Below, in pieces: positions 28,184 through 47,744 of a stretch of 64,000 nucleotides of DNA. Made by a program: the position numbers and the translations under genes. Under the pieces are notes generated by a model, which had not been told where the DNA came from, made no database searches, and worked only from the letters and a program-made list of their open reading frames with translations. Position 1 is the first letter of the stretch. Each line of letters opens with the position of its first letter. Source of the stretch: an uncultured Actinomycetes bacterium (lineage in GTDB: Bacteria > Actinomycetota > Thermoleophilia > RBG-16-64-13); the NCBI GenBank assembly GCA_963706025.1, contig CAVPLM010000003.1, positions 817,970-881,969 on the forward strand, given 5' to 3'.

Positions 28184-28193
28184 GCCGGTCTTC

Positions 28194-30359: not shown

Positions 30360-31214
30360 ATGAGCGCACTCTATTCGATCCTGTCCGGCATCTCCTACGG
30401 GATGGTCCTGTTCCTGCTGTCTGCCGGCGTCTCTATAGTGTTCGGACTCATGAACATCGTGAACCTGGCTCATGGCATGCTCTTCATGCTGGCCGCGTAT
30501 GCGGGAATAGAGGTCGTGCAGTCCACCGGCAGCTTCTGGCTCGCCCTGGTGGTCGGCATCTTCGCAGCCGGTCTTGCGGGATTGATCATAGAGCGGGGCT
30601 TTCTCCGCACGCTCTATGCCAAACAACTGTCTCAGATACTCGTCTGTTTCGGCTTTATCTACGTAATCACCAATCTGCACCTCTGGCTCTATGGGCCGAT
30701 TCCGAAGACAATGCCCGTTCCCGAAGTATTGCAGAACTCGGTCCCTATCGGCGCGTATCAGTTCAGCTACTACCGCATCATGATCATCCTTGTCGGCCTG
30801 CTCCTGTGCGGGCTTCTCTATTTTGCCCAGGAGCGCACCAGAGTGGGAGCGATCGTGCGGGCGGGGATGGAAAAGCCCGAGATGGTGAACACCATGGGCA
30901 TCAACCTGATGGCCGTGAACATCGGAGCCTTCTTTGTGGCCTCTTGCCTGTCGGGTCTGGCGGGCGTTCTGGGCGCCGGGGTCATCGGAGGGGTGTCTTA
31001 CTTCACCGGGGGAAATTATGTCTTCGTGGCGATCGCGGTGTGCATCATCGGCGGTGTAGGCTCGGTGCAAGGAGCTTTGGCAGGCGCCCTCATCATTGGT
31101 GTGTGCGAAGCCCTCGCCAAGACGTTCTATCCTCCGCTGGCCTTGTACATCATGTACCTCTTGATGGCGCTGGTGATCATATTCCGGCCCAGCGGGTTGT
31201 TGGGCAAGAAATGA
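30360..31214 (+). CDS. LivH-like ABC permease
   Basis: Motifs FGLMNIVNLAHG and IIGGVGSVQGA. Confidence 0.92.
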   Translation: MSALYSILSGISYGMVLFLLSAGVSIVFGLMNIVNLAHGMLFMLAAYAGIEVVQSTGSFWLALVVGIFAAGLAGLIIERGFLRTLYAKQLSQILVCFGFIYVITNLHLWLYGPIPKTMPVPEVLQNSVPIGAYQFSYYRIMIILVGLLLCGLLYFAQERTRVGAIVRAGMEKPEMVNTMGINLMAVNIGAFFVASCLSGLAGVLGAGVIGGVSYFTGGNYVFVAIAVCIIGGVGSVQGALAGALIIGVCEALAKTFYPPLALYIMYLLMALVIIFRPSGLLGKK

Positions 31215-32287: not shown

Positions 32288-32288
32288 G

Positions 32289-33047
32289 ATGGCGGACATG
32301 CTCAAGATCGACAACGTGACCCAGGCCTACGGCGGCCTCACGGTACTCCAGGGTATCAGCTTCGTGGTCGCCCCCGGGGAGAAGGTGGCCCTGATCGGGC
32401 CCAACGGGGCCGGCAAGACTACCGTGCTCAACGTGCTTACCGGCCTGCTTGCCCCCGCGTCGGGCAGCGTCTACCTGTCCGGGCAAGACATAACGGGACT
32501 CCCGGTGCAGAGGAGGATCGCCCTTGGCATGGGTCGGAGCTTCCAGATCACCAGCCTCTTCCCCCAGCTCAGCATCCTGCACAACGTCCTGCTGGCCCTG
32601 TTGGGGGTTCAAAGAGCGAGCTACCACATGCTGCGGAGCATCACCTCCTTCAAGGCGGCGAACGCCGCGGCGAAGCAGTTGCTCGACTCGGTCGACCTAT
32701 GGGATGCGCGTGACCTTCTCCCCACAGAGATCTCCTACGGGCAGCAGAGACGCCTGGAGCTCACCTTGGCCCTGGCCTCTCAACCCAAAGTCCTCCTGTT
32801 GGACGAGCCGAGCGCGGGCCTCTCGAACGAAGAATCTGCCGCCCTTGGCAGAATGCTGCGGCTGCCGGCCTATGAGGACGTGGCGATCCTGCTGGTGGCT
32901 CACGACATGGACCTGGTCTTCGGGGTGGCGGATCGGATCCTGGTGCTCTACTACGGCGCCATCGTTTCCGAGGGCAAAGCCGAGGAGATTCAAAGAGACG
33001 AGAAGGTAAGGGAGATCTACTTCGGCTCGGGGGCGGACCGTGCTTGA
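32289..33047 (+). CDS. LivG-like ABC ATPase
   Basis: Motifs GPNGAGKTT, SYGQQR and LLLDEPSAG. Confidence 0.93.
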   Translation: MADMLKIDNVTQAYGGLTVLQGISFVVAPGEKVALIGPNGAGKTTVLNVLTGLLAPASGSVYLSGQDITGLPVQRRIALGMGRSFQITSLFPQLSILHNVLLALLGVQRASYHMLRSITSFKAANAAAKQLLDSVDLWDARDLLPTEISYGQQRRLELTLALASQPKVLLLDEPSAGLSNEESAALGRMLRLPAYEDVAILLVAHDMDLVFGVADRILVLYYGAIVSEGKAEEIQRDEKVREIYFGSGADRA

Positions 33048-33750
33048 GATCGCCGGCATCGATACGTACTACGGCCAGACCCAGATCTTGAGGAACGTCT
33101 CGTTGGCCGTGGAAGAGGGCAAGATAGTCACCCTGCTTGGACGCAACGGCATGGGGAAGACCACCACCGCACGCTCGATCATGGGGCTCACGCCGCCTCG
33201 CGCTGGATCCATCACGTTCGAGGGCAAGGACATCACGCACCTGAAGCACTTCCGCATCGCCCGCCTGGGGCTGGCTCTGGTGCCGCAAGGTCGCCTGATC
33301 TTCGCCTCGCTGAGCGTGAAGGAGAACCTGACCATGGGGATGCGGGGGGAAGGGTTCTCGCTTGACAACATATACGAGTACTTCCCGGTCCTCAAAGAAA
33401 GATCGAAACACAAGGGGAACCAGCTCAGCGGCGGCGAGCAGCAGATGCTGGCCATAGCCCGGGCCCTGCTTGCCAATCCCAAGCTACTGCTGTTGGACGA
33501 GCCCTCCGAGGGCCTTGCTCCAAGGATCGTGGAAGAAGTGGGCCAGATCGTCCTGAAGCTCAAGGAGATGGGATTGTCGGTCCTTCTGGTGGAGCAGAAC
33601 CTGTCATTGGCTCTCGGCGTGAGCGACTATGCCTACGTGATGCACAGGGGAGAGATCGTCTACCGGGGAGCCACCGCGGAGCTGGCACAGAATGATGCCG
33701 TGCAGGCGGAGTACATTGGCGTTTCCGGGTCGGGACGAAGCGCGGGTTGA
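33040..33750 (+). CDS. LivF-like ABC ATPase
   Basis: Motifs GRNGMGKTT, LSGGEQQML and LDEPSEGLAP. Confidence 0.93.
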   Translation: MLEIAGIDTYYGQTQILRNVSLAVEEGKIVTLLGRNGMGKTTTARSIMGLTPPRAGSITFEGKDITHLKHFRIARLGLALVPQGRLIFASLSVKENLTMGMRGEGFSLDNIYEYFPVLKERSKHKGNQLSGGEQQMLAIARALLANPKLLLLDEPSEGLAPRIVEEVGQIVLKLKEMGLSVLLVEQNLSLALGVSDYAYVMHRGEIVYRGATAELAQNDAVQAEYIGVSGSGRSAG

Positions 33751-33774
33751 CCTAACCGAAAGGAGAAGGGGTCG

Positions 33775-34763
33775 ATGCACGAGATTGACTTTTCCAAGTA
33801 TAAAGATGTGCCGCCCTACATGTTCATCCCCTTCGCCAAAGACACCATCATGGACATGTCCTACCACGACAGGTGGAACATCCCGGACAAGGTGGGCATA
33901 ACCGTCGCGCCGGTGGGAGCCTTCGTGAAGCGTGACCAGAACCCCTATCAGCCGTATACGCCCGAGGAGATCATCAAGGAGTGCATCGAGGCCGTCGAGG
34001 CAGGGGCCTGCGGAGTGCACATCCACGTGCGCGACGAAGAAGGTAACCCATCGTCCGACCGGACGATGACGCTGCAGGTGGTCAACGCTCTGCGGGAGCG
34101 GTTCAGGGACACCGTCTACATCGAGGGAGAGGCCAACACCGGCCCCGACTTCGAGACCATGATGCAGCCGCTAGTCGAGGACTACCTGGAGAACGCCGCC
34201 GTCAACTGTATGGCGGATTTCATCGGGGACGCCCTGTTCTGTCTGCCGCCGCAGACCTGCCGGGCGACCGCCGAGGTGATCCAGGCCTGCGGCAAGAAGG
34301 TCACGCTGGCGGTATACAACGCGGGGGATATCGATAACACCTACCGGTGGATCATCAAGCCAGGCGTCGTCAAGCCCCCTTCTGCTGGGGGGTGTGCATC
34401 GGCACGCCGGGCGGAGCCCCGATGTGGGACCCGCTCGGCATGGCGGAGACGCTGCTGGGCGTTATCCGGCGCATCAGGGACGTCGACCCCTCGGACAGCC
34501 CCTTCATCACCGTGTGCCAGGCGGGGCGGGCCTCCTCGTACCTGTCGACCTTGGCGATCCTGCTCGGCTGTAACGTGCGTGTGGGCAAAGAGGACGCCAT
34601 CCACGTGGTGCCGCACAAGGACGACAAGATCGTCTCCTGCAAAGACGCTGTGGAACAGCACGTCGTGCTGGCCAGGCTGCTCGGCCGGGAGCCCATGACC
34701 GCGGCCGAGTACCGGGTGGCCAACGCCATGGCTCCCTACGAGTACAGAGGGGCGTACACATGA
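33775..34763 (+). CDS. BKACE/DUF849 beta-keto acid cleavage enzyme family; frameshift in the C-run near 34376
   Basis: ITVAPVGA..NPYQPYTPEEI..AGACGVHIHVRD in frame 1; GCNVRVGKED..LGREPMT in ORF 34347..34763. Confidence 0.85.
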
Positions 34764-35524
34764 AACGCGTGAAGGACAAGGTGGCGATCGTCACCGGGGC
34801 GGCCAGCGGCATGGGCGAGGCCTCGGCGCGGCTGCTGGCCCGCGAGGGGGCTAAAGTCGTGATGTCCGACATCAACGAGGTAGCTGGAGACAGGATAGCC
34901 ATGGAGATAGCAGGTCAGGGCGACACCTGTGTCTTCATGAAGCACGATGTGGCCAGCGAGTCCGACTGGCAGCGGGTGATCGCGGGCACTCTCGAGCGTT
35001 TCGCCAGGCTTGACGTACTCGTGAACAACGCCGGCGTCACCGTGAACAAGGATATCGAGGAGACCACGCTGGAAGAGTGGCGCTGGGTCATGAGTGTCAA
35101 CCTGGACGGTGTGTTCCTCGGGGTCAAATACGCCATGGGGGCTATGAAGAAGACCGGGGGCGGTTCGATCATCAATATCTCTTCGGCCGGGGGGATCGTC
35201 GGTCAGTTGTGGGCTGCTGCCTACAACGCCAGTAAGGGCGGCGTCAGGCTGCTGACGAAAGCGGCCGCCCTCGAATGTTCAAAGGCGGGGCGCGACTACA
35301 ACATCCGAGTCAACTCGATCCATCCCGGATGCGTGCGCACGGCTCTCCTGGAGCCTCTGCTCAAGAAGAAGGAGATGGCGGACATCATCAACAGTCTGCA
35401 TCCAATAGGGCACCTGGGAGATCCGGAGGACGTGGCCTACGCAGTCCTCTACCTGGCGTCTGATGAGTCCAAGTTCGCCACCGGCTCGGAACTGGTGATC
35501 GACGGAGGCTACACGGCCCAGTAG
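34760..35524 (+). CDS. Classical NAD-dependent SDR oxidoreductase
   Basis: Motifs TGAASGMG, acidic SD after beta2, NNAG, YNASK and IDGG. Confidence 0.92.
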   Translation: MKRVKDKVAIVTGAASGMGEASARLLAREGAKVVMSDINEVAGDRIAMEIAGQGDTCVFMKHDVASESDWQRVIAGTLERFARLDVLVNNAGVTVNKDIEETTLEEWRWVMSVNLDGVFLGVKYAMGAMKKTGGGSIINISSAGGIVGQLWAAAYNASKGGVRLLTKAAALECSKAGRDYNIRVNSIHPGCVRTALLEPLLKKKEMADIINSLHPIGHLGDPEDVAYAVLYLASDESKFATGSELVIDGGYTAQ

Positions 35525-35571
35525 CAGTCGATCGGGGAGAAGACGGTCGTCACAGAGCGAAAGGTGGAGAG

Positions 35572-36582
35572 ATGAAGAAGTTGATCAACAACCCATACGA
35601 GGTCGTCGACGATACGCTCGCCGGTATTCTCAAAGCCTATCCATTCCATCTGCGGGCCTGTCGGGAAAGCCAGCGGGCCTTGGTGCGCGCGGATGCGCCG
35701 GTGAAAGGTAAGGTAGGCATCTGCACGGGAGGAGGGTCGGGTCATATTCCTGTGTTTCTCGGCTATGTCGGCCCGGGCCTGCTTGACGGAGTGGCCGTAG
35801 GCAACGTCTTTTCGTCTCCAAGCGCGGAGGACATGCTGGCTGCCGCCAAAGAGGTCGACGGCGGTGCCGGCGTGCTCTATCTCTACGGGAATTACCAGGG
35901 CGACATTATGAACTTCGACATGGCCGCGGAGATGGCGGAAGTCGACGGAATCGCCGTAAAGACGTGCATCGCCATGGACGACGTCGCCTCAGCCCCGCGT
36001 TCCGAAATGGAGCACCGTCGAGGCGTGGCCGGCATCTTCTTTGCCTACAAGATCGCCGGAGCCAAGGCCGACACCATGGCCAGTCTCGACGAGGTCAAAG
36101 CTGTGACCGACCGAGCGATCGAGAGCACGTGCACCATGGGGTTCTCTCTCAGCCCCTGCACGATCCCAGCGGTCGGGAAACCCACCTTCTCCATCGCTGA
36201 GGATGAGATGGAGCTCGGCATGGGCATCCACGGAGAGCCCGGTATCGAGCGCACCAAGCTGAAGCCGGCCAACGAAGTGGCCACTATCGTCACGGAGAAG
36301 CTCATCGCCGATCTGCCCTTCAGGGCCGGCGACAAGGTGGCTGTGCTGGTCAACGGTCTGGGGGCCACTCCGCCGGAAGAGCTCTTCATCCTGTACAGCA
36401 AGGTCCACGACATTCTGAGGGAGCACAGCATCGGGATATATCGGTCCTTCATTGGCGAATATGCGACGTCCATGGAAATGGCCGGCGCGTCGGTCACGTT
36501 ATTCAGGCTGGACGAGGAATTCATGAGTCTGCTGGATGCGCCTGCGTACTCACCGTTCTTGCTGCAGTGGCCTAGGCCGTGA
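35572..36582 (+). CDS. dhaK: Dihydroxyacetone/tetrulose kinase K subunit
   Basis: Motifs GGGSGH, GNYQGD..NF and GMGIHGEPG. Confidence 0.9.
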   Translation: MKKLINNPYEVVDDTLAGILKAYPFHLRACRESQRALVRADAPVKGKVGICTGGGSGHIPVFLGYVGPGLLDGVAVGNVFSSPSAEDMLAAAKEVDGGAGVLYLYGNYQGDIMNFDMAAEMAEVDGIAVKTCIAMDDVASAPRSEMEHRRGVAGIFFAYKIAGAKADTMASLDEVKAVTDRAIESTCTMGFSLSPCTIPAVGKPTFSIAEDEMELGMGIHGEPGIERTKLKPANEVATIVTEKLIADLPFRAGDKVAVLVNGLGATPPEELFILYSKVHDILREHSIGIYRSFIGEYATSMEMAGASVTLFRLDEEFMSLLDAPAYSPFLLQWPRP

Positions 36583-37238
36583 GCGCGTTTGCCTTCGACA
36601 GTGCTGACCTCTGTCGCATGCTAAGTCAGGTAGCGGCCGGTCTTGCGGCGCACAGCGAAGAAATGCGAGAATTAGACGCAAAAGTAGGTGATGGAGACCT
36701 GGGGATCACGGTTGGCCTGATCGCCAAAGCCTTGACCGACTTCGCAGAAACAACGAGCGAAGCAGATGTAGGGAAGCTGCTCATGCAGTGCGGCTTGGCG
36801 GTCAACAGATCCAATCCCTCCACTTTCGCCACTATTCTTGCATCTGGATTCATGGGTGGTGGCAAAGCTGTCGTCGGCAAGACGTCTATCGGGCTCAGTG
36901 ACTGGGTCGCCATGGGCGAAAGCGCGGTCGACAGCATGCAGTGCCGTGGCAAGGCGTCGGTAGGAGACAAGACCCTGCTGGACACGCTGGTGCCGGCTAT
37001 CGCGTCGCTGGCAGCCGAGGCGCGCAAGGGGAGCGATGAACGGACCGCGGTGCTGGCAGCGTCGCGGGCCGGTGAGCAGGGGATGAGGGCCACCACAGAT
37101 ATGGTCGCCAGGTGCGGCAGGGCCAGGGCTTTTCAGGAGCGGAGCATTGGCGTGCAGGACGGCGGCGCCACGGCGATGTTCTACATGATCAACGCCTTTG
37201 CGGAGTTTGTGGACGCCTCGCTCCCGAATGTGGGTTGA
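36579..37238 (+). CDS. dhaL: Dihydroxyacetone/tetrulose kinase L subunit
   Basis: Motifs LDAKVGDGDLG, GDKTLLD, GRA and DGGA. Confidence 0.88.
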   Translation: MSAFAFDSADLCRMLSQVAAGLAAHSEEMRELDAKVGDGDLGITVGLIAKALTDFAETTSEADVGKLLMQCGLAVNRSNPSTFATILASGFMGGGKAVVGKTSIGLSDWVAMGESAVDSMQCRGKASVGDKTLLDTLVPAIASLAAEARKGSDERTAVLAASRAGEQGMRATTDMVARCGRARAFQERSIGVQDGGATAMFYMINAFAEFVDASLPNVG

Positions 37239-37298
37239 TGCGATGAACAACGCGACAGATGGAGCCCAGGTCATGCTAAGGCCGGCAAGGAGGAGTGG

Positions 37299-37664
37299 AT
37301 GCTAGAGCGCGTAACAAGGGACGATGCCCCCGTATACCACCTGCCGGGCCGCGATTGGCGCTTGTGCATGGGTCCCGGCATCAGTGAGGTCAAGAACCTG
37401 ACGGTGGGTGTCTCGATCTTTCCCCCGGGGTCCGCTCCGCCCGGCCATGTCCACGACCGCGAGGAGGAAGTCATCTACGTCGTGTCGGGACGAGGGGAGC
37501 TGCACACACCCGAGTGCTCTGTGTCGTTGGAGCCAGGGACCTGCGTCTATGTCCCCATCGGGCTGCATCACGCTACTGCTTCACACGGCCCGGAACCTCT
37601 CGAACTGGTCACGGCATTCTCACCCCCGGTCATGCCCGGATCGTATGAGGTGCAGGAGAGATGA
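37299..37664 (+). CDS. Cupin_2 domain protein
   Basis: HVHDREEEVIYVVSG...VPIGLHH. Confidence 0.85.
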   Translation: MLERVTRDDAPVYHLPGRDWRLCMGPGISEVKNLTVGVSIFPPGSAPPGHVHDREEEVIYVVSGRGELHTPECSVSLEPGTCVYVPIGLHHATASHGPEPLELVTAFSPPVMPGSYEVQER

Positions 37665-38548
37665 CCCAGGCCTCGCCCAGCATCGACGAGATGCGGGCGA
37701 TCGCCCGGCGCGGAAGGCGCGAGATCGTCAAGGCAGTGGCTCGCGCAAAGGGAGGTCATCTGGGTGGGCCCCTCTCTGCCTTCGACATTCTCACCGCCCT
37801 CTACTTCAGAGTGTTGAACGTGCGGCCTGACGAGCCCTCCTGGCCCGACCGGGATCGATTCATCCTTTCGAAGGGTCACGCCTCCATCGCTCTGTACACG
37901 ATCCTCGCCCTCCGCGGCTACTTCCCGCTTGAGGAGCTATCGACCTTCGACGCGATCGATTCCCGGCTGCAGGGACATCCGGACATGACCATCACTCCGG
38001 GCGTCGACATGTCGTCCGGCTCCCTTGGTCTTGGGTTCTCTGCCGGTATAGGGATGGCGCTGGCGGCCAGACTGGCCGGGAAGACCTTCACGACCTGCGT
38101 GATGGTCGGCGATGGCGAGTGCAACGAGGGTATCGTCTGGGAGGGGGCCCACGTCGCCCAACGTCACGCGCTCGGCAATCTCGTTGTCATAGTCGACCAC
38201 AATCAGCTCCAGCAGTTTGGATGGCGCGGTAAGGATGGAGCTGATCGTCTTCCTCCCTACACGGGGACCCAGCTAAAAGACCGGTGGACCTCCTTCGGAT
38301 GGGAGACGCTCGAGGTCGACGGGCACGACATGGCGGCCGTGGTCGATGTCCTTGAGAGGGCCTGGCATGTCAGCGACAAGCCCGCTTTGGTCATCGCCCG
38401 CACCGTGAAAGGCAAGGGCGTTTCGTTCATGGAGGGGGACTTCCTCTGGCATAGCCGGGTGCCCACCGACGAAGAGCTGGCGGCTGCGCTCGAGGAGTTG
38501 AAAGAGCCTCCGACTGAAGGGCAGGGGGGCGTGCGTGGCTCTTCCTAG
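37661..38548 (+). CDS. Split transketolase, N-terminal subunit
   Basis: Motifs GGHLGG, RDRFILSKGH, LQGHP, GDGECNEG and TVKGKG. Confidence 0.93.
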   Translation: MTQASPSIDEMRAIARRGRREIVKAVARAKGGHLGGPLSAFDILTALYFRVLNVRPDEPSWPDRDRFILSKGHASIALYTILALRGYFPLEELSTFDAIDSRLQGHPDMTITPGVDMSSGSLGLGFSAGIGMALAARLAGKTFTTCVMVGDGECNEGIVWEGAHVAQRHALGNLVVIVDHNQLQQFGWRGKDGADRLPPYTGTQLKDRWTSFGWETLEVDGHDMAAVVDVLERAWHVSDKPALVIARTVKGKGVSFMEGDFLWHSRVPTDEELAAALEELKEPPTEGQGGVRGSS

Positions 38549-39485
38549 CGGGAAAGCCTTGCGGGTAGCCTTCGGAGAGAGCGTCACGGAGATCGCGAAG
38601 CGTGATCCCCGGATCGTCATGTTGGACGGTGACGTCGGCATTTCCACTCGTGCCGACATCTTTGAGGCAGCCTACCCCGATAGGTTCTTCCAAATGGGGA
38701 TCGCGGAGCAGAACATGCTAGGCGTTGCCGCGGGCTTCGCAAGCGTTGGATTCGTTCCGTTTGTCAGTGTGTTCGCCTGTTTTGCCGTCGCCCGCGCGCT
38801 CGACTCGATCCGTGTCCTGATTGCTCAACCAAGACTAAGTGTCAAGATCGCCGGTGGGTATGCCGGGCTTCTAGCCGGCAAGACGGGGAAGACGCACCTG
38901 ATGTTGGACGATGTCTCAATCATGCGCGCCATGGCGAACATGTCGGTGATCGCCCCGGCCGACGAGATCGAGACCCGACAGGCGATCGAGGCCGCTGTCG
39001 AGATCGAGGGCCCCATGTACTTGCGGATCACCCGGGAGATCTCTCCACTGCTCTTTGACTCAACCTACAAGTTCCAGTTTGGGAAAGCGGTCGTGGTTCG
39101 GGACGGCAGTGACGTGGCGCTCATCAGCACCGGCGTGCAGACTTGCCGGGTCTTGGAAGCAGCGGAGCTCCTAGCTGCACAAGGGGTCGAGGCGCTCGTC
39201 CTGCACGTGCCTACGATCAAGCCGCTCGACTGTGACGCGATCGTCCGGGTCGCGAGAGAAACAGGCTTTGTCGTCACGATAGAAGACGGCACGGTCATCG
39301 GGGGACTCGGCGGAGCGGTGGCCGAAACGCTCGGGGATCGGTATCCAGTCACCGTGAAGCGCCTTGGCATTCTCGACGTCTTCGGTGAAAGCGGGCCGGA
39401 CGACGCCCTGCTCGAGAAGTACCGCCTCTCGCCATCCAAGGTCGCCGAAGACGTAGCAACGCTGCTCGGATCGAGCCGGGGATGA
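38535..39485 (+). CDS. Split transketolase, C-terminal subunit
   Basis: Motifs GIAEQNM, GPMYLR, PTIKPLD, GGLGGAVAE and FGESG. Confidence 0.93.
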   Translation: MALPSGKALRVAFGESVTEIAKRDPRIVMLDGDVGISTRADIFEAAYPDRFFQMGIAEQNMLGVAAGFASVGFVPFVSVFACFAVARALDSIRVLIAQPRLSVKIAGGYAGLLAGKTGKTHLMLDDVSIMRAMANMSVIAPADEIETRQAIEAAVEIEGPMYLRITREISPLLFDSTYKFQFGKAVVVRDGSDVALISTGVQTCRVLEAAELLAAQGVEALVLHVPTIKPLDCDAIVRVARETGFVVTIEDGTVIGGLGGAVAETLGDRYPVTVKRLGILDVFGESGPDDALLEKYRLSPSKVAEDVATLLGSSRG

Positions 39486-39561: not shown

Positions 39562-40332
39562 TTAGGTGCCCCGGCGCGCGGTCGCGAATTCGGCGAGTGA
39601 TTCGTCTTCGTTCGATGCTTTCGCAGCAACGAGCTCCGGTGACGCCGCCATATCGCGCAGAAAGAGCTCCAGGATTCTTCTGGAGATGCCGTCGGTCACG
39701 AACTCTTCGATTCCCATCAGCTTTGTAACGTCCTCAGCCCAGAAGAGAAGCATCATCTCGTAGGCCGCTACCCGCGGGTCCATGTCTGGACGGATGGTGC
39801 CCTGTCGTTTTCCTTCTTCCACGAAACCGGCGAGTGTCTTCAGGGTCTCGCGCTGCCTCTCACTCGAGACTTCGCAGAGGCCGGAGTCTGGGGGAGCCGT
39901 GAGGACCTCGAAGGTAGGGAGGACAAAACCGTCGAACTCTCCCGAGATAAAGGTGGAGTGGGTTTCGGCGAGGGTTCGGAGGCGGTCGAGCACGTTGGGC
40001 TCGGACGGCACGGTCAGGTGCATGACTACCCTCTCGCACATGACTTCCACAGCGGCAAGCAGCATATCTTGCCTACTGGGGAAGTGGGCATACAGCGATG
40101 GTGCCTCCATCCCGACTTCCTCGGCGATCCGGGATACCGTTGTGCCGTGGAGTCCGTGGCGAGCTATCAGCCGAAGCGTCGCGTCGGCGATCTGGGCCTT
40201 TCTCTCGAGACCGCTAAGTCGAGCTCGGGGCATCTTGTTCCCGGTCTTGCGGGGGCTGCTACCTTGCGGAGCTTTCCGGTCGTTTCTTCCTCTCTCTGGC
40301 GTTCCGTCCAACGGGATTACCTTCTCTCGCAA
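39562..40332 (-). CDS. TetR/AcrR-family regulator (start may be ATG 40233)
   Basis: HTH RKAQIADATLRLIARHGLHGTTVSRIAEEVGMEAPSLYAHFPSR. Confidence 0.9.
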   Translation of the reverse strand: MREKVIPLDGTPERGRNDRKAPQGSSPRKTGNKMPRARLSGLERKAQIADATLRLIARHGLHGTTVSRIAEEVGMEAPSLYAHFPSRQDMLLAAVEVMCERVVMHLTVPSEPNVLDRLRTLAETHSTFISGEFDGFVLPTFEVLTAPPDSGLCEVSSERQRETLKTLAGFVEEGKRQGTIRPDMDPRVAAYEMMLLFWAEDVTKLMGIEEFVTDGISRRILELFLRDMAASPELVAAKASNEDESLAEFATARRGT

Positions 40333-40502
40333 GAGCCTTCTTGACGACTATGACGACTGTCGATCTTCTCGCCGAGACTGAGTGACTGATTCCTCAGAAT
40401 AGTGCTCCGGCCGCGGTTCGGTCTAGCGCCGATCGGGACCCGCAACTCGTTTTCCGATTCTTCCTTGACGTGCCGACCGTGCGCATGGCACGGATACTAT
40501 TC

Positions 40503-40666
40503 TACCTAACAAGCAAAGTTAGGTAATGCGCGAAAGCGAAGACCGTTCGTGGCGATTGCCGGCGCGACCTTTCCCGGCGACACCGGTTGCCTGTGAGACT
40601 CGCACTTGATGTGCAAGCCGTCACGTGGTATAGGCACTGCTATACCTAACAAACGCAAGTTAGGTA
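40503..40666. promoter_or_regulatory. Two TetR-type inverted-repeat operators in the divergent tetR/lactonase region
   Basis: TACCTAAC-N7-GTTAGGTA (40503-40525) and TACCTAAC-N8-GTTAGGTA (40643-40666); the second lies just after TTGATG-N17-TATAGG. Confidence 0.8.
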
Positions 40667-40685
40667 ACCCGAAGGAGGGATCAGG

Positions 40686-41516
40686 ATGAAGAAGACGAGG
40701 CTTAGCCTCCTGGATAGCGGCACCTTGGCTCTAGAAGGATACAAGCTGTTCTGGGGGCGTGGCTCGGCCGAGCTTGTCCGCTTCGCCAGTTACAGCGTGC
40801 TGATCGATCACAAGGACGGCCTGTTCCTCTTCGACAGCGGATACGACGGCGACTTCATGGACAAGTGGACCCCGCAAGACCATGCGATCCACAGCCCGGA
40901 GCAGACCATACCGGCTCAGTTCGCCAAGCTTGGGATCGACATGAGCGAGGTGCGGTACATCCTGAACTCGCACCTTCACATCGATCATGTGGGTGGCTTC
41001 AAGTTCCTCCCCGACGCGACTATCGTCGTGCATGAGAAGGAATACCAAGCTGCCAAGGACCCCATGCCGTTCGAATACCAGAGCTATTCGGACCTGTCCT
41101 TCGATCCTGAACTCCACCGGCTGAACTTCATGGGGGCGCGAGACATCCTGGGCCGGGCCGGCACGGAGGAGACCAAGCCGGCCAACCCGCGGTCGCCGAG
41201 GTACGAGTTCGTCGACAAGGACATCGAAGTCGCCGAAGGCATCTGGCTTTACGAGACTCCTGGCCACTCCCTGGGTCACATGAGCCTCGTGGTTGAGGGT
41301 CTACAGCGCGCGCCCATGATGTTCCCGGCCGACGCCTGTCACCTCCCGCGGCACTTGGAGGAGATGATCGTGCCGGGATTCCATGTAGACCCGGTTGCTG
41401 CGTACCGGTCGATTGAGAAGGTGAAAGCGACCGCCGCTAAGCACGGCGCCGAGGTCTTCTTCGGGCATCCTCCGGGAGATTCGCTCTGCTACCGCAAGGC
41501 TCCGGCTTGGTACTGA
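40686..41516 (+). CDS. Metallo-beta-lactamase-fold lactonase, 4-pyridoxolactonase-like (AHL-lactonase family)
   Basis: Motifs SHLHIDHVGG and TPGHSLGH. LLDSGTLALEGYKLFWGRG..VRF.SYSVLI, PFEYQSYSDLSF and FHVDPVA recall Mesorhizobium 4-pyridoxolactonase (from memory). Confidence 0.8.
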   Translation: MKKTRLSLLDSGTLALEGYKLFWGRGSAELVRFASYSVLIDHKDGLFLFDSGYDGDFMDKWTPQDHAIHSPEQTIPAQFAKLGIDMSEVRYILNSHLHIDHVGGFKFLPDATIVVHEKEYQAAKDPMPFEYQSYSDLSFDPELHRLNFMGARDILGRAGTEETKPANPRSPRYEFVDKDIEVAEGIWLYETPGHSLGHMSLVVEGLQRAPMMFPADACHLPRHLEEMIVPGFHVDPVAAYRSIEKVKATAAKHGAEVFFGHPPGDSLCYRKAPAWY

Positions 41517-42976
41517 TGAACGCTACCGACATCACCGACCTGCGCACGGCGCTCGAGTTTCTCGAGGCGATACCCGGCCAACTGGTGTCGACGAGAGTGG
41601 AGGTCGACCCGTACCTCGAGTTGGCCGGTATCTACAGACGGGTGGGATCCGGCACGCCGACGGCTCCACCCACTCAGATCGGCCCGGCCATGCTGTTCCA
41701 GAACGTCAAGGGCCACGACGTGTCGGTGGTCGCCGGAGTGCTGGCCAGCCGGGAGCGTACTGCCCTTCTCCTGGGAAGCAAAAAGGAACGGCTGGCCTTC
41801 GATCTGCTCGCGGCCTTGGAGCACCCCGTGCCGGCGGTGGACATCCCAGAGGGGACCGGGGCCCCGTGCCAGGAAGTGGTCATCGAGCCGCCATTCGACA
41901 TCCGGAGATTCATTCCGGCGATGATCAGTACCAAGAAGGACGCCGGAGTCTTTCTGAACATGGCAATAGTCCGCGCTGAGGATCCTGAGAACGGCCAATC
42001 GGACGTCACGTTCCATCGCATGTGCATCCATGGACCCGAAACCATGACGGTGGAGTTCACGCCCGGCCGCCACATCGACTGCTTCCGACTGAAGGCTGAG
42101 GCGAAGGGCAGGCCTTTCCCTGCTTCGATCAATATCGGCTTGGACCCGGCCGTGCACGTGGCCACGTCCTTCGAACCCCCCACAACGCCTCTCGGATTCG
42201 ACGAATTGACGGTCGCCGGCGCCTTGCGGCAACGGCCCGTTGAGCTGGCGGGTTGCGTCACGCAGCCCACACGAGCCCTTGCTCGGGCCGAGATCGTTCT
42301 GGAAGGGGAGTTCAGACCGGGCGAGTATGTGGACGAAGACGCGGTCAGCCGGACTGGGTGGGCCATGCCTGAGTTCCCGGGCTACGTGGGCAAGGCCCAT
42401 CTTCATCAGCCTGTCTTCCATGTGACCGCAATCACTCACAGGACCGATCCTATCTTTCAGGTACTGATTGGACCGGGAGAGGAGCACGTGACCCTCACGG
42501 GTCTACCCACTGAAGCCAGCATCTACAGGCTCATCCATAATGCCATGCCCGGCTTCCTCCAGAATGTGTACTGCCATTCATCGGGGGGTGGCAAATACCT
42601 GGCCGTGCTACAGGTGAAGAAGAGACATTCGATGGACGAGGGCCGGCAGCGTCAAGCAGCGCTGACCGCGCTCGCCGCTTTCGCGGAGTTGAAGCACGTC
42701 ATTATCGTCGACGACGATGTGGATCTTTATGACACAAATGATGTCATGTGGGCCATGACCACCCGCTATCAGGGAGACGTGGACACCATCTGCATCCCGG
42801 GCGTGCGCTGCCACCCCTTGGACCCGACCGCCAACCCTGAATACAACCCGATGTTGCGCGACAGGGGCCTTTCCTGCAAGACCATCTTCGACTGTACGGC
42901 TCCCTTCGGCATGAAGGAGCACTTTGAGCGTTCCCAGTTCGTAGATGTGGACCTGAGGAAGTTCCTGGCTGAGTGA
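41516..42976 (+). CDS. UbiD-family prFMN decarboxylase, AroY/LpdC (protocatechuate/gallate) clade
   Basis: Motifs EVDP..ELAGIYR, PTQIGPAMLF, FEPPTTPLGFDEL, AMPEFPGY, EEHV and HPLDP; the ATG overlaps the lactonase TGA. Confidence 0.9.
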   Translation: MNATDITDLRTALEFLEAIPGQLVSTRVEVDPYLELAGIYRRVGSGTPTAPPTQIGPAMLFQNVKGHDVSVVAGVLASRERTALLLGSKKERLAFDLLAALEHPVPAVDIPEGTGAPCQEVVIEPPFDIRRFIPAMISTKKDAGVFLNMAIVRAEDPENGQSDVTFHRMCIHGPETMTVEFTPGRHIDCFRLKAEAKGRPFPASINIGLDPAVHVATSFEPPTTPLGFDELTVAGALRQRPVELAGCVTQPTRALARAEIVLEGEFRPGEYVDEDAVSRTGWAMPEFPGYVGKAHLHQPVFHVTAITHRTDPIFQVLIGPGEEHVTLTGLPTEASIYRLIHNAMPGFLQNVYCHSSGGGKYLAVLQVKKRHSMDEGRQRQAALTALAAFAELKHVIIVDDDVDLYDTNDVMWAMTTRYQGDVDTICIPGVRCHPLDPTANPEYNPMLRDRGLSCKTIFDCTAPFGMKEHFERSQFVDVDLRKFLAE

Positions 42977-43082
42977 AGATCAGACGTGGAGAAAGACCAC
43001 CGTACATTGTGTCGGGGCTCCAGAGAGGTCCGACTATGATGAGATTCTGGGCCGTGTCATGCCGACCTTAAGGAGACTACAG

Positions 43083-44393
43083 ATGACATCTGATACCAGA
43101 ACCAACGAGTTGCATAGACGGGCAATGAAGGTGATGCCCGGGCCACAGAGCAATCTTCGCATGCCCATCAACATCAGACCCACGTTCATCGAGCGGGGAC
43201 AGGGGTGCCATTTGTGGGATGTGGATGGGAACGAGTACATAGACTACATGATCGCGGCAGGGCCAGGGGTGCTTGGACAGAGTAACCCGGAATTCACCGA
43301 CGCCATGAAGAACCAGCTGGACAAACTGCTCTACTCAGTTTCAGGAGCTTCGCAGACGCCCATGGAAGTTGATCTTGCCGAGAAGCTCGTACAGATTATT
43401 CCATGCGCAGAGAAGGTCAGGTTCCTTCTATCGGGAACAGAAGCGGTACAGTTGGCCATAAGACTGGCCAGGGGCTATACGGGGCGTCGCTACTTCGTAC
43501 GTTTTGAGGGAAGCTACCATGGCTGGTTGGACAATGTCCTCGGCGGACTGGTTCATGACGACCCATTGGAGAACCCTTTTCCGTACGAAGGAGAGAGCGA
43601 TTCCCTGGGGACCGCTGGGCGAGATCCTTCTGCCTTCGAGCAATGCTTCTGCCTACCATACAATGATATTGAAGTATTCGAGAAAGTGCTTGATCGCTGG
43701 GGTGATCAGGTTGCCATGGTCCTTGTTGAGACGATCCAGGCGAGCGGGGTCATATCCCCGAGACCCGGCTATCTGGAACGCGTACAGGCGCTGTGTCGCA
43801 AATACGGTATCGTCCTTTGCTTCGATGAGGTAGTCACCGGTTTTCGAGTGGCGTTGGGGGGTGCCCAGGAGCTTTTGGGGATCACCCCGGATCTGGCCAT
43901 CTACGGCAAGGCACTCTCAGCCGGCTTACCCTTAGCGGCATTGGCTGGTCGAAGCGATATCATGGATCTCCTGCTGGGACCCAAGGTAGTGGGCGCCGGT
44001 ACATTTAACGGCTACCCTCTGGGGATATCTGCGGCATTGACCACCGTGAAAATCCTGGAAAGAAATAATGGGGCTATATACGGGCAAGTAGATCATGTGC
44101 AAACCAAGCTCATTGAAGGATTGAGAGCAATTCTGAAGCGTCATAAAGTCACGGCGGTGATCCAGAGCGTTAGGGGCATTTTCATCGTCCATTTCACAGA
44201 CAAAGCTGTTGTCTGGAGTGTAAGAGACCTCACGACAGCGGACTCCGCCATGGCTCACCAGTTCCGCCTACGTCTGGCCGATGAGGGTGTACTGATTCTA
44301 TTTGGCGGCCGCTGGCTAATCACCAGTGCTCACACTGAGGAGGACGTAAATAGAACGCTGGAGTGTGCGGATAGGGCTGTGGGCCGGTTATGA
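43083..44393 (+). CDS. Class-III PLP aminotransferase (GSA-aminomutase-like), lower GC
   Basis: Motifs DVDGNEYIDY, SGTEA, FEGSYHG, FDEVVTGFR, PDL..YGKAL and GTFNG. Confidence 0.88.
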   Translation: MTSDTRTNELHRRAMKVMPGPQSNLRMPINIRPTFIERGQGCHLWDVDGNEYIDYMIAAGPGVLGQSNPEFTDAMKNQLDKLLYSVSGASQTPMEVDLAEKLVQIIPCAEKVRFLLSGTEAVQLAIRLARGYTGRRYFVRFEGSYHGWLDNVLGGLVHDDPLENPFPYEGESDSLGTAGRDPSAFEQCFCLPYNDIEVFEKVLDRWGDQVAMVLVETIQASGVISPRPGYLERVQALCRKYGIVLCFDEVVTGFRVALGGAQELLGITPDLAIYGKALSAGLPLAALAGRSDIMDLLLGPKVVGAGTFNGYPLGISAALTTVKILERNNGAIYGQVDHVQTKLIEGLRAILKRHKVTAVIQSVRGIFIVHFTDKAVVWSVRDLTTADSAMAHQFRLRLADEGVLILFGGRWLITSAHTEEDVNRTLECADRAVGRL

Positions 44394-44607
44394 TTTGTGG
44401 ATAGGAAAAGCTCGAACAATACATGTTCACCTTTGAAACCAATAAAACTGCCAGCTTATCCAACATCTAAAGATATTCACAGAACTTCGCACGGCAAAAA
44501 CCATATCTTCACCATACTCACGAAACATCCAAGAGGAAACTAGACCAACCAATGAACCATAGATGTTACAAGGCGTGGCCCACGTGGGTACCAAAGACTA
44601 TTGGGAG

Positions 44608-44680
44608 CGAGGAGTCCCCGGCGGGGTACGATTGGGTCTAGGTCTGGATGTAGCTCCAACCGCGAGTGACTCGACTCTCC
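44608..44680 (+). repeat. 73-bp direct repeat, right copy
   Basis: Same sequence as 22932-23004 with one A/G mismatch; it contributes GTGACT(-35)-N17-TACAGT upstream of the exonuclease gene. Confidence 0.95.
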
Positions 44681-44729
44681 ACCCGCACTACAGTAGCTAC
44701 GGTGCTCACTCCAACGAGGTGCTCCCTAG

Positions 44730-45929
44730 ATGACAACATGGCGAGTTGATCGTCTTCTTGTCGTTGATGTGGAGACGACCGGCCTGTACAACTCGGACCG
44801 GGTCGTCGAAGTAGCCGCGGTGACGCTGTCGGCGGGCGGACAGATCGTCGACGAGTGGGACACCCTCGTCAATCCGGGCCGTGACGTCGGCCCGACACAC
44901 ATCCATGGAGTCACTGCCTCGATGGTGTCGGCCGCCCCCTGCTTCGAAGAGGTGGCCGAGGCGTTGGCCGGCCGCGTCGATGGCGCCGTTCTTGTCGCCC
45001 ACAACCTAGCCTTTGATTCGCGGATGCTGACCAACGAGTATGCTCGACTCGGCACCACGCTGGATCCCGGCAGAGGAGTCTGTACCTTGGCCCAGTGTGG
45101 GCAGCGCCTTGAAGATGCCTGCGCCACGCACGGGGTCGAACTCCACCATCATCATCGGGCCCTGGCGGACGCACGTGCGACTGCGCAACTTCTGATTGCT
45201 GCCCGATGCGCGGTGGACGAGTCTTCGCCCGCGAGAGTCGGGAGTCTTAGCAGCCCGGCCTGCCCCCGCACTCTCCGACGGGACGCCGTTCTCGCCGATT
45301 CCAGCGCAGAGATGCCCTATCTCGCGCGGCTGGCCGCCTATTCTCATCACCGAGCCGAGCGAGGGGCGAGCCTTGTGTACCTCGACATGCTTGATTGGGC
45401 GCTTGACGACCTAGCCGTTTCTCCCGAGGAATGGTCCGAGCTATCGAGGTTGGCCTCGAGCCTCGGCATGACAGACGCGGGCATAGAATCTGCTCATCAA
45501 CGCTATCTTCGCGAGTTGGTGGTCGCGGCGGGTCGTGACGGCAGGATTACCGACCAGGAGTATGCGCTTCTCAGGAGGGCGGTTGACGCGCTGCATCTCG
45601 AACCCACACTGCTGGACGAGGCAGTGAAGCCCTTCATGGAGGTAGCCCATCTGCTTCGAATCCAACCCGATATGAGCGTCTGCTTCACGGGCAGCGCAAC
45701 ATACTCCGACGGCACAGAGATACCGCGAGATAGACTCATCCGCATTGCCCAGAGCCTGGGTCTCCGGGTGGTGGACTCCGTGACCAAGAAAGGGTGCGAC
45801 TTCTTGGTGGCGGCAGACCCGAGTTCGCTCTCGGGCAAGGCGAGCAAGGCCCGTGGGTATCACGTTCCGATTGTTGATGTACGGGACTTCGCATGTGCGG
45901 ACACCGGGGCCGGGATTCCAGCTTTCTGA
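44730..45929 (+). CDS. DEDDh 3'-5' exonuclease with a TerB-like middle domain and a C-terminal BRCT domain
   Basis: Motifs VVDVETTG, VAHNLAFD and HRALADA; DGRITDQEYALL; BRCT VCFTG..SVTKK..LVAADP.SLSGKASKA. Confidence 0.88.
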   Translation: MTTWRVDRLLVVDVETTGLYNSDRVVEVAAVTLSAGGQIVDEWDTLVNPGRDVGPTHIHGVTASMVSAAPCFEEVAEALAGRVDGAVLVAHNLAFDSRMLTNEYARLGTTLDPGRGVCTLAQCGQRLEDACATHGVELHHHHRALADARATAQLLIAARCAVDESSPARVGSLSSPACPRTLRRDAVLADSSAEMPYLARLAAYSHHRAERGASLVYLDMLDWALDDLAVSPEEWSELSRLASSLGMTDAGIESAHQRYLRELVVAAGRDGRITDQEYALLRRAVDALHLEPTLLDEAVKPFMEVAHLLRIQPDMSVCFTGSATYSDGTEIPRDRLIRIAQSLGLRVVDSVTKKGCDFLVAADPSSLSGKASKARGYHVPIVDVRDFACADTGAGIPAF

Positions 45930-46010
45930 TTCTGAGCGAAGGCACCGGGTCAGCAATGGGCTCTTGCTTCGGAGCGACCTTCATCGACTCCTCGTGTCTG
46001 GCCTTGATGG
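45930..46010 (+). pseudogene. HNH endonuclease C-terminal relic
   Basis: HRVSNGLLLRSDLHRL, typical of the HNH_2 NGLLLRxDLHxLFD motif. Confidence 0.6.
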
Positions 46011-46107
46011 TAAGCTTGGCTTGCGCGGTTCCAGGCATGATTGGCATCGCGGTGGCCGGCGCTCTCGGCCGGGTGGCGGGTCGCAGGGCAGAGATGCGGA
46101 GGCGAGG

Positions 46108-47253
46108 GTGTTGCGTGTCGAGATAAAGCCCGAACTGCTGCGCTGGGCGTGGGAGCGCGCCGGGTTTGACCTTCGCGAATTGACCCAGCGTATCCCGCAG
46201 CTCCCCTCGTGGTATCGCGAGGAGACTCATCCCACCTTGAAACAGGTCGAAGGCTTCGCGAAAGCCACGCACACCCCTGTTGGCTACCTGTTCCTTCAGA
46301 CGCCACCCGTCGAGCGGGTCCCTATCCCAGATTTGCGAACAATTGGCAGCGCACGTAGTGAGCGCCCCAGCCCTGACTTGCTAGACACACTCTACCTTTG
46401 CCAGCAGCGCCAGGAGTGGTTCCGCGACTACGCTCGATCCTTCGGTGACCAGGTGCTTCCATTCGTGGGGTCCGTCGACCTGACAAGCAATGTTGAGAGG
46501 ACCGCGGCCGGCATGCGAAACGCCCTGGGGTTCGACCTCGAGGAGCGCCGCCGAGCCTCGACGTGGACCGACGCGCTGCGCGGTTTCATCGAGCAGGCGG
46601 ACGCTCTTGGCGTGCTCGTGATGGTAAGCGGCATCGTCGGCAACAACACTCGGCGCAAGCTCGATCCCGACGAGTTCCGGGGCTTTGCCTTGTCGGATAG
46701 GCTGGCGCCACTCGTGTTCATCAACGGCGCGGATACCAAGGCGGCGCAGATGTTCACCTTGGCGCACGAGCTGGCCCATCTATGGCTCGGTGAATCCGCG
46801 CTATCCAACGTCGAGCCCCTGTCCTCGCCGTCGCAGCGAATCGAGGCGTGGTGCAACCGGGTCGCGGCCGAATTCCTGGTGCCTCTGGCCGCTCTGCGGG
46901 GTGTATATCGTGAGGACTCCGATACTCGGTCCGAAGTTGACCGTCTTGCTCGTATCTTCAAGGTCAGCACGCTGGTCATCCTGCGTCGCATCCATGATGC
47001 CGGCGGCATAACGCAGGATCAGCTTAGGAAAGCTTATGCTGAAGAACTGGAACGATTGCGAGCCATTCCCCGAGGAACAGGCGGCGACTTCTATCTGACT
47101 CAGGGGGCGCGGGTTGGCAAACGCTTCGCGCGCGCGCTGGTTGCGAGCACGCTGGAGGGCCAGACACTTCACCGCGATGCCTTTCGTCTTCTCGGCATCT
47201 CGAAGTTGGCGACATTCCGCGATCTCGGCCACAGCCTGGGAGTCGTCTCGTGA
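46108..47253 (+). CDS. XRE-HTH + ImmA/IrrE (M78) Zn metallopeptidase
   Basis: IKPELLRWAWERAG..PTLKQV, FRGFAL and FTLAHELAHLW (HExxH); GGAGG precedes GTG 46108. Confidence 0.9.
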   Translation: MLRVEIKPELLRWAWERAGFDLRELTQRIPQLPSWYREETHPTLKQVEGFAKATHTPVGYLFLQTPPVERVPIPDLRTIGSARSERPSPDLLDTLYLCQQRQEWFRDYARSFGDQVLPFVGSVDLTSNVERTAAGMRNALGFDLEERRRASTWTDALRGFIEQADALGVLVMVSGIVGNNTRRKLDPDEFRGFALSDRLAPLVFINGADTKAAQMFTLAHELAHLWLGESALSNVEPLSSPSQRIEAWCNRVAAEFLVPLAALRGVYREDSDTRSEVDRLARIFKVSTLVILRRIHDAGGITQDQLRKAYAEELERLRAIPRGTGGDFYLTQGARVGKRFARALVASTLEGQTLHRDAFRLLGISKLATFRDLGHSLGVVS

Positions 47254-47744
47254 CGTATCTCCTGGATGCGAATGTCTTTATGCAAGCGAAGAATCTCCAT
47301 TACGGGCTGGACTTCTGCCCGGCCTTCTGGGACTGGCTCGTGGAGAACAACGAGGCTGGAATGGTGTTCAGCATCGAGAAGGTTGGAGACGAGATCGACG
47401 CCGGTGCCGATGAGCTTGCTGAGTGGGCGTCGCGGCGTGGGCGCGAATTCTTCCTCAAGCCAGATGCGACCATGCTGCCGGCGCTCGGGACGGTCAGTTC
47501 ATGGGTTATGGATCAGCCGTACGAACCTGTTGCCGTAAGCACGTTTCTTCAGGTGGCCGATTACTACGTAGTCGCGCATGCCCTTGCCAACGGGCACACC
47601 GTGGTCACACACGAAATCCCATCCTTCTCCCCGAAGAAGATCAAGATTCCTAACGTGTGCATCGGCCTTGACGTCAAGTGCATGACGCCGTTTGAGATGC
47701 TCCGGCACGAACGGGCCCGATTCGTCCTAGGTCCATCAGCATAG
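47250..47744 (+). CDS. DUF4411 PIN-like protein
   Basis: YLLDANVFMQAKNLHY..FWDWL, ADYYVVAHA, VVTHE and KIKIPNVC. Confidence 0.88.
   Translation: MTYLLDANVFMQAKNLHYGLDFCPAFWDWLVENNEAGMVFSIEKVGDEIDAGADELAEWASRRGREFFLKPDATMLPALGTVSSWVMDQPYEPVAVSTFLQVADYYVVAHALANGHTVVTHEIPSFSPKKIKIPNVCIGLDVKCMTPFEMLRHERARFVLGPSA

Follow-up and report, generated by a model that had tools for sequence, protein, structure and literature searches.

Organization of the locus

We studied a small gene unit in a 64-kb stretch of DNA, hereafter the window, which covers positions 817970-881969 of contig C3 of G000, the source metagenome-assembled genome (MAG) of an uncultured Actinomycetes bacterium (3.66 Mb in 30 contigs, 92% complete, 7% contamination). 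At the centre of the unit, a gene for a lactonase of the metallo-beta-lactamase (MBL) fold and the 4-pyridoxolactonase family (40686-41516, plus strand; Pfam Lactamase_B, E 6.5e-19) is joined to a gene for a 486-residue AroY-type UbiD decarboxylase dependent on prenylated flavin mononucleotide (prFMN) (41516-42976, plus strand; three UbiD Pfam domains). They are followed by a gene for a class-III aminotransferase resembling glutamate-1-semialdehyde (GSA) aminomutase (43083-44393, plus strand; Aminotran_3, E 5.7e-63), and a TetR-family regulator is encoded divergently from the operon (39562-40332, minus strand; TetR_N, E 5.2e-15). All four genes had been predicted in an earlier reading of the DNA made without database searches (the sequence-only reading), and all were found at these positions in the list of open reading frames (ORFs) and by a Pfam scan.

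How closely are these genes tied together? The junction between lactonase and UbiD reads tggtacTGATGaac; the lactonase stop codon occupies 41514-41516 and the in-frame UbiD ATG 41516-41518, a TGATG with an overlap of one nucleotide. This ATG, rather than a TTG at 41507, is most likely the UbiD start. From the UbiD stop to the ATG at 43083 there is a gap of 106 nt, and that ATG, with AAGGAG upstream at 43070-43075, is most likely the start of the aminotransferase, whose ORF is open from 43059. No terminator-like sites were found between the three plus-strand genes. On the other side, the divergent intergenic region of 353 nt contains two palindromes that are candidate operators, both exact: a distal one at 40503-40525 (TACCTAAC-N7-GTTAGGTA, 183 nt before the lactonase ATG) and a proximal one at 40643-40666 (TACCTAAC-N8-GTTAGGTA, 43 nt before it). 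The proximal palindrome ends 20 nt before the ATG, directly upstream of the ribosome-binding site GAAGGAGGG (40671-40679). The sequence-only reading had described the TGATG coupling, the class-III aminotransferase behind UbiD and a divergent tetR with twin operators, and the junction, the Aminotran_3 match and the two exact palindromes confirm it on each count.

The lactonase and its clade

Among solved structures the best match of the lactonase is the 4-pyridoxolactonase 3AJ3 (E 9.7e-64 over residues 1-275), and the N-acyl-homoserine lactone (AHL) lactonases come next, none of them better than E 1e-23. The protein has the HxHxDH motif of the MBL fold as well as its further metal ligands (distal His, Asp and His), and H96, H98, D100, H101, H194, D216 and H261 are invariant in an alignment of 22 sequences (A1) and identical in 3AJ3. 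On NF047925, the NCBIfam equivalog model for 4-pyridoxolactonase (EC 3.1.1.27), the protein scores 276.1 bits, below the cut-off of 325 bits. The models for AHL lactonases give 104.2 bits for AiiA (NF045699, cut-off 375), 107.1 for AttM (NF045700, cut-off 390) and 86.4 for AhlS (NF047976, cut-off 475). A likeness to 4-pyridoxolactonase had been proposed earlier, with a comparison against AHL lactonases proposed as a check; the structure match bears out the likeness, and the AHL models fall far below their cut-offs.

A protein search with the lactonase gave 315 matches. Its 40 best clusters cover at least 95% of the query with identities of 59-88%, and below them no full-length match exceeds 49%. 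In a maximum likelihood tree of 35 rows, the close group containing the window protein, which we call clade W, has support of 100/100 and is separate from the 4-pyridoxolactonase-like sequences. Two further members of clade W, P0010 and P0040, score 302.7 and 276.3 bits on NF047925, again under the cut-off, and seven of eight more distant homologues score 335-413 bits, the remaining one 305. Because of the score below the cut-off and the separate, fully supported clade, the lactonase is placed in a sister clade to the curated 4-pyridoxolactonases; judged by its residues and profile scores, it is a real di-metal lactonase of that family.

The decarboxylase and its cofactor supply

The UbiD protein aligns with AroY from residue 5 to 485 of 486 (5O3M, E 1.5e-169), and also matches 5NY5 (E 2.6e-164), so its earlier description as AroY-type holds. 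The UbiD N-terminal, rift-related and C-terminal domains (PF20695, PF01977 and PF20696) are all above cut-off at full length. The score against the VdcC model NF041204 is 398 bits, with a cut-off of 650. In the available text of PMC5656893, the catechol-binding motif of AroY consists of Arg188, His327, Lys363 and His436, with Glu289 as the likely acid, and exchange of any of the five abolished the activity of the AroY enzymes of Enterobacter cloacae and Klebsiella pneumoniae (Ec/KpAroY). All five are found in the window protein, where R185, H324, K360, H433 and E286 correspond to R188, H327, K363, H436 and E289 of EcAroY (positions counted on the 5NY5 alignment). The Arg of the HR motif, which by count is residue 171 of 5NY5, is matched by R168. 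The same available text names an "Arg181" near the substrate carboxylate, yet the count gives Ser for position 181 of 5NY5 and puts its conserved Arg residues at 171 and 177; opposite the latter, the window protein has Pro. We infer that the catalytic Arg near the carboxylate would be R168, that is R171 in 5NY5.

One property of the known enzymes bears on the substrate. As far as the available part of PMC5656893 goes, Ec/KpAroY did not accept substrates with a substituent ortho to the site of carboxylation. The UbiD proteins linked to a lactonase, here and at the loci described below, share 11 lineage-specific fixed substitutions, including I166F, S178T and L201F, and I166F lies two residues before the putative catalytic Arg. 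These substitutions may be an adaptation to ortho-substituted substrates.

Where does the prFMN come from? The genome has five UbiD-family genes and a single ubiX above cut-off, at C3:46494-47036 (TIGR00421, 243 bits), on the same contig as the window UbiD and about 0.81 Mb from it. This locates the gene that the sequence-only reading had rightly reported as missing from the window. A VdcD-type subunit (VdcD/LpdD) was searched for in the 92%-complete genome and not found.

Conservation of the lactonase-decarboxylase pair

To see how widely the pair occurs, contigs of one genome per species and JGI metagenome contigs were scanned with the clade-W alignment, and the window proteins were placed on the loci by tblastn. 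Besides the window, 25 loci carry a clade-W lactonase (64-98% identical), 12 of them genomic (L001-L011 and L014) and 13 metagenomic (L062-L073 and L086). An AroY-type UbiD gene directly follows the lactonase in three of the 25: L001 (lactonase 98% and UbiD 94% identical to the window proteins), L002 (87% and 84%) and L062 (83% and 81%). At 16 loci (L003, L004, L006-L009, L014, L063-L070 and L086, of which L063 and L065 gave the same figures and are perhaps a single sequence) the place is taken by another gene of about 385 codons, called c4 here, which is frameshifted in L004, L008 and L009. Neither gene directly follows the lactonase at five loci (L005, L010, L011, L072 and L073), and L071 is truncated there by the end of its contig.

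At all three other AroY-paired loci the TGATG overlap is kept, despite protein identities of just 81-94%. The third gene varies: it is the aminotransferase in the window and L001, a Peripla_BP_6 ABC binding protein in L002 and an AMP-binding enzyme in L062. The L002 binding protein, which directly follows the pair and is accompanied by ABC permeases and ATPases, is 80% identical to its orthologue at 28835-30157 of the window. Thus the earlier expectation that the pair would prove conserved is right in that the pair and its overlap recur at three loci, and falls short in that these make up a narrow lineage, three of 25.

The aminotransferase shares this patchiness, since it follows the pair in the window and L001, with a shared ATGA for UbiD stop and aminotransferase start in the latter, and is absent from that place in L002 and L062. 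Probably it has become the third gene of the operon in this lineage alone. The protein is GSA-aminomutase-like, its best solved match having E 6e-78, and the protein atlas places it in generic clusters of the GSA-aminomutase family only. An identity as HemL was rejected (TIGR00713, 337 bits against a cut-off of 527.3); the genome has 11 class-III matches, of which this protein ranks third, and all stay under the cut-off. Its four best GSA-aminomutase-like paralogues score 294-381 bits.

The usual partner has a NicX-like fold

What is the gene that most often stands behind a clade-W lactonase? Neither Pfam nor NCBIfam recognized any of 31 c4 members, and the Pfam copy used seems to have no NicX model; the protein atlas pointed to NicX. 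A HMMER scan of 1.84 billion representatives gave 234 relatives. A profile of 31 of the c4 relatives matches NicX 7CN3 over its whole length (E 2.6e-15), and an AlphaFold model of c4 (mean pLDDT 89.6) matches NicX in Foldseek with E 1.9e-19 and a TM score of 0.63-0.70, ahead of M29 aminopeptidases. The nearest relative of c4 is therefore NicX, the 2,5-dihydroxypyridine 5,6-dioxygenase of Pseudomonas putida (7CN3, 7CUP; PMC7910607), with which it shares the NicX/M29-like fold. According to the accessible part of PMC7910607, the Fe(II) ligands of NicX are His265, Ser302, His318 and Asp320. In an alignment with about 13% identity and an uncertain register, c4 has His at Ser302, His at His318 and Ser at Asp320, and NicX His265 falls two columns from a conserved c4 His. 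This suggests that the metal site of c4 is related to that of NicX yet not the same, and both the metal site and the reaction may differ.

The window has no intact c4 beside its lactonase. A decayed copy lies at 24925-26080 on the minus strand, 43-51% identical to the c4 of L006 and spread over three frames with in-frame stops; genes for E1 beta (26165-27202) and E1 alpha (27203-28282) immediately precede it, and an Amidohydro_1 gene (23415-24635) lies downstream. Shorter c4 fragments are found at 17407-17664 (plus strand) and 23062-23268 (minus strand). These decayed copies may be true pseudogenes or assembly errors. An intact homologue (48%) is encoded at C5:1095531-1096652 of the same genome; the idea that it is a paralogue of the decayed cluster of the window was not supported.

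Regulator and candidate operators

The TetR ORF was counted from a TTG at 40332, which puts the helix-turn-helix at residues 48-94. No NCBIfam equivalog comes near its cut-off, and homology gave no clue to the effector, as the closest solved structure, that of a FadR-type TetR, matches at only E 5e-11, which is uninformative. Orthologues of this regulator stand divergent from the lactonase in L001 (88%), L002 (61%) and the NicX-type L063/L065 (54%). The palindrome TACCTAAC-N7/8-GTTAGGTA has just two matches in the whole window, both in the divergent region, and none in 100 shuffles. In L001 the palindromes lie at -160 (one mismatch) and -43 (exact), while L002 has one site at -43 with both half-sites changed symmetrically (TCCCTAAC...GTTAGGGA). 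These observations point to a TetR that would repress the operon through both palindromes.

Evolution of the operon

On the lactonase tree the four AroY-paired sequences form one clade (100/99), in an unresolved polytomy with the c4-paired ones inside clade W. Just five fixed differences, L79F, D88E, G178K, Q198H and F212M, separate these four from the other 19 clade-W lactonases. Since the fixed differences are so few, the lactone is probably similar in AroY-paired and NicX-paired operons.

On the UbiD tree the four lactonase-linked proteins also form their own clade (100/100). Its neighbours are stand-alone copies from the same family, one in genome G030 (69% identical) and a frameshifted copy on contig C6 of the source genome (76%); both face a 3-hydroxyacyl-CoA dehydrogenase gene, with no lactonase nearby. 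The C6 copy (C6:52641-54094, L043) is 76-83% identical to the window gene, its halves are shifted in frame by about one base, and neither a lactonase nor a ubiX was found within 9 kb of it. A paralogue or a pseudogene would explain it, as would an assembly error or, given the 7% in this MAG, contamination. Among 401 sampled genomes of the phylum, 11 including the source genome have a match at E <= 1e-80. Nine of 12 AroY-like places were fetched; six of them (50-56% identical) have an adjacent ubiX, and none of the nine has a lactonase beside it. Because the AroY-paired lactonases form one clade among the NicX-paired ones, a single partner swap is likely, in which a duplicated resident AroY gene replaced the NicX-fold gene behind the lactonase, on the line of descent to the window.

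Genomic surroundings

Upstream of the unit on the same strand, a block at 28835-39485 encodes a Peripla_BP_6 protein, ABC ATPases, a BKACE, a short-chain dehydrogenase/reductase (SDR), DhaK (Dak1), DhaL (Dak2), a small cupin and a split transketolase with separate N and C genes. From this block through the aminotransferase the window is syntenic with L001, and the lactonase-UbiD unit closes the block, which may belong to the same catabolic island. The SDR (34760-35524) was considered as a pyridoxal 4-dehydrogenase and rejected, since there is none among the best 60 of its 186 solved matches and it resembles R-alcohol and hydroxysteroid dehydrogenases.

Immediately after the aminotransferase comes an AT-rich spacer of 336 nt, and beyond it are a DEDDh exonuclease-BRCT protein matching the PADLOC candidate defence family PDC-S48 (E 9e-103), an IrrE/M78-peptidase protein and a DUF4411 protein. 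At the place of this region (44394-47744) L001 has an acyl-CoA dehydrogenase gene. The region was probably inserted, as a block of defence or mobile genes, and synteny ends with it. The G+C content falls to 0.58 over 42001-46000, which takes in the aminotransferase gene with the 3' part of UbiD before it and the inserted block after it, compared with 0.62-0.65 on either side. Among the sequencing runs listed for 40400-44400 there is no RNA run, and the 14 listed all contain small shares (0.05-0.14).

Elsewhere, clade-W loci recombine flavoenzymes like old yellow enzyme (OYE) and FadH with BKACE, E1 alpha/beta and Peripla_BP_6 transporters. Upstream of the unit in L002 (317-6951) there are a UPF0261 protein, a PEP-hydrolase-like protein, an NAD epimerase/dehydratase, a distant UbiD (26%) and a two-domain flavoenzyme of OYE/FadH type, and OYE/FadH-like genes are near the lactonase also in L007, L008, L009 and L014.

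The source genome has two lactonase paralogues, at C20:52207-53004 (L051, 44%) and C3:411803-412621 (L052, 43%), each beside Amidohydro_2 genes; the former also has a TetR paralogue (42%) and a hydrolase of S15/CocE type nearby. Amidohydro_2 genes are near outgroup lactonases as well, in L015, L017, L019, L020 and L081. This family includes non-oxidative decarboxylases among other enzymes, and these neighbours give only a hint that the pairing of lactonase and decarboxylase may be a recurring theme. A menaquinone-type UbiD at 405 kb of C3 is 6 kb from the second paralogue; a link between the two was rejected, as this UbiD lies among UbiA, MqnA-like and radical-SAM genes of menaquinone synthesis.

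Discussion

What might this operon do? We propose a catabolic operon under TetR repression, in which an aromatic ring-fused lactone is hydrolysed and the resulting catechol-type acid is then decarboxylated without O2, and we would put the chance that this is right at about even. TetR would occupy both palindromes, one of them abutting the ribosome-binding site, until a ligand releases it. The lactonase, to judge from its family, would open a ring-fused lactone, the other ring being aromatic or heteroaromatic, and UbiD, to judge from its conserved residues, would remove the freed aryl carboxylate, with hydroxyls in meta and para position, in a step that needs no O2. Its prFMN would be supplied through the single, distant ubiX, and the GSA-aminomutase-like aminotransferase would have been added as a third gene in this lineage. 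A catechol-type aryl carboxylate is favoured because the residues that bind the para and meta hydroxyls are conserved in UbiD. A hydroxylated phthalide-like or benzo-fused lactone would thus suit the decarboxylase better than a lactone of vitamin B6.

Several points weigh against this proposal. The arrangement occurs at only three of the 25 other clade-W loci, and together with the differing third gene this rarity may mean that the module is a recent, loosely integrated shuffle. An opened ring-fused lactone keeps one ortho substituent, of the kind that Ec/KpAroY rejected in the available text of PMC5656893, and the linked UbiD proteins have 11 substitutions of their own, including I166F near the putative catalytic Arg. 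Neither ubiX nor VdcD is adjacent, compared with six of nine other actinobacterial AroY loci that have ubiX alongside. Moreover, co-expression is no proof of consecutive reactions.

If the two reactions are not consecutive, the enzymes would be co-expressed and chemically unlinked: UbiD would act on protocatechuate or gallate, the lactonase on an unrelated lactone, and their adjacency would be a by-product of the removal of the NicX-like gene. The complete protocatechuate-binding set of AroY in the window protein is what this explanation expects, and it is in line with the closest UbiD paralogues, which stand alone, with the rarity of the pair, whose flanks are different every time, and with a neighbourhood pieced together from modules that recur (E1 alpha/beta, BKACE, OYE/FadH-like, Peripla_BP_6 transporters). 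Against it, the one-nucleotide overlap of stop and start has been kept across four loci down to 81% protein identity, the linked UbiD proteins are a clade of their own with 11 fixed substitutions, and a TetR that appears dedicated, with candidate operators at the lactonase promoter, would serve both genes. We regard this explanation as unlikely, though worth keeping in mind. That the lactonase instead quenches AHL signals in a signalling or defence unit is barely credible. AiiA, AttM and AhlS are indeed its next-best matches after 4-pyridoxolactonase, but they reach 86-107 bits against cut-offs of 375-475, the protein sits inside the 4-pyridoxolactonase-like radiation on the tree, and the partner genes are enzymes of aromatic catabolism.

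The remaining explanations keep the two steps consecutive and differ in the lactone. The sequence-only reading had put forward a B6 route, from pyridoxamine to pyridoxal by the aminotransferase, then over 4-pyridoxolactone to 4-pyridoxate and its O2-free decarboxylation by UbiD. It is attractive in that the nearest characterized relative of the lactonase is 4-pyridoxolactonase, that the usual partner in clade W is a homologue of NicX, whose sole characterized member cleaves a hydroxypyridine ring, and that the aminotransferase is tightly linked in the window and L001, with the ATGA overlap in the latter. Yet 4-pyridoxate has its ring nitrogen para to the carboxyl group, and has no para hydroxyl and no vicinal diol. 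It is mainly because this acid fits the AroY residues poorly, all of which are kept in UbiD, that we rank the B6 route low and give it only a slight chance. The lactonase score adds to this, as the window protein and both other tested members of clade W stay at 276-303 bits, under a cut-off that seven of eight more distant homologues pass, and so does the patchy aminotransferase, absent from two of the three other AroY-paired loci. The unit also has no dehydrogenase, and the nearest SDR, 5 kb away, has no pyridoxal 4-dehydrogenase among the best 60 of its 186 solved matches, other B6 genes not having been searched for by family. Ellagic acid and related urolithin-type lactones would be another choice, the dibenzo-pyranone being opened and then decarboxylated by the AroY-type enzyme, from luteic acid to urolithin M5 or onward. 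By chemical reasoning, the opened ring of ellagic acid or an 8,9-dihydroxy-urolithin has meta and para hydroxyls that match the AroY residues, and the relatives come from assemblies of soil, sediment and wetland, where tannins are common, a weak sign taken from titles and labels. On the other hand, the known substrate of the lactonase family is a five-membered benzylic lactone and not an aryl ester, the ortho substituent would again meet the restriction described for Ec/KpAroY in the available part of PMC5656893, and the loci have no specific sign of tannin metabolism. Further, the only ellagic acid lactonase described has, in the portion of its report at hand, a seven-bladed propeller active site and not an MBL fold; homology to that enzyme was rejected for the same reason. 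We find this choice very improbable. Is there a lactone common to both operon types? One lactone-derived hydroxy acid might have two fates, O2-dependent ring cleavage by the NicX-fold protein in most lineages and O2-free decarboxylation by the AroY-type enzyme in the lineage of the window, but this broader scenario is, in our estimate, quite improbable.

The enzyme families of the operon are already known, and it is useful to set it beside the systems in which they were described. With the 4-pyridoxolactonase of Mesorhizobium loti/japonicum (3AJ3, 4KEP, 4KEQ; NF047925) the lactonase shares the MBL fold, the metal ligands and an end-to-end alignment. It differs by an insertion of about nine residues around 145-170, by its score and separate clade, and by neighbours that are NicX- or AroY-like and not known B6 catabolic genes. 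With AroY of Klebsiella pneumoniae and Enterobacter cloacae (5O3M, 5NY5, 5O3N; PMC5656893, as far as available) UbiD has in common the full-length match, the catechol residues and the acid, whereas its gene is coupled to a lactonase, carries the 11 clade-specific substitutions and has no ubiX beside it. The VdcBCD and LpdBCD operons (UbiX, UbiD and D subunit) likewise have a prFMN-dependent C subunit of the UbiD family, and the window operon lacks their B (UbiX) and D genes. A further system to compare is the ellagic acid lactonase EAL of Gordonibacter urolithinfaciens (bioRxiv 10.64898/2025.12.05.692447), which opens an aromatic lactone and leads to a decarboxylated phenolic product, urolithin M5. 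In the accessible part of that report, EAL has a seven-strand propeller-like pocket, is assigned to lactonase/amidohydrolase families, and is described with no separate UbiD partner.

A literature search found, in the text that was available, no paper joining a 4-pyridoxolactonase-like lactonase with a UbiD enzyme. The suggestion of the sequence-only reading that lactone opening followed by prFMN-dependent decarboxylation is a new logic remains reasonable, and is weakened by the narrow lineage, in a clade where the usual partner has the NicX fold, by the catechol set of UbiD, which does not fit 4-pyridoxate, and by the patchy aminotransferase. What is new here is the hard-wired pairing of lactonase and UbiD, the evidence for a swap with a NicX-fold partner, and two uncharacterized clades with a regulator and a candidate operator.

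Why does this matter? There is a demand for UbiD-type prFMN decarboxylases as catalysts of reversible carboxylation, and the natural substrate is known for few of them. The lactonase-linked AroY paralogues point to a substrate besides free protocatechuate, probably an ortho-substituted catechol acid of the kind rejected by the AroY enzymes studied so far. The locus also offers a first way in, through genomics, to a large sister clade of 4-pyridoxolactonase and to the NicX-like family that accompanies it. If the substrate shared by the two operon types were a hydroxypyridine lactone, for example a B6 catabolite, each would represent a way of degrading B6 or pyridines not described before, with the window as the O2-independent branch. 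The exchange of a NicX-fold protein for a UbiD behind one lactonase can be seen as a natural experiment, in which an operon would have traded an O2-dependent step for an O2-independent one.

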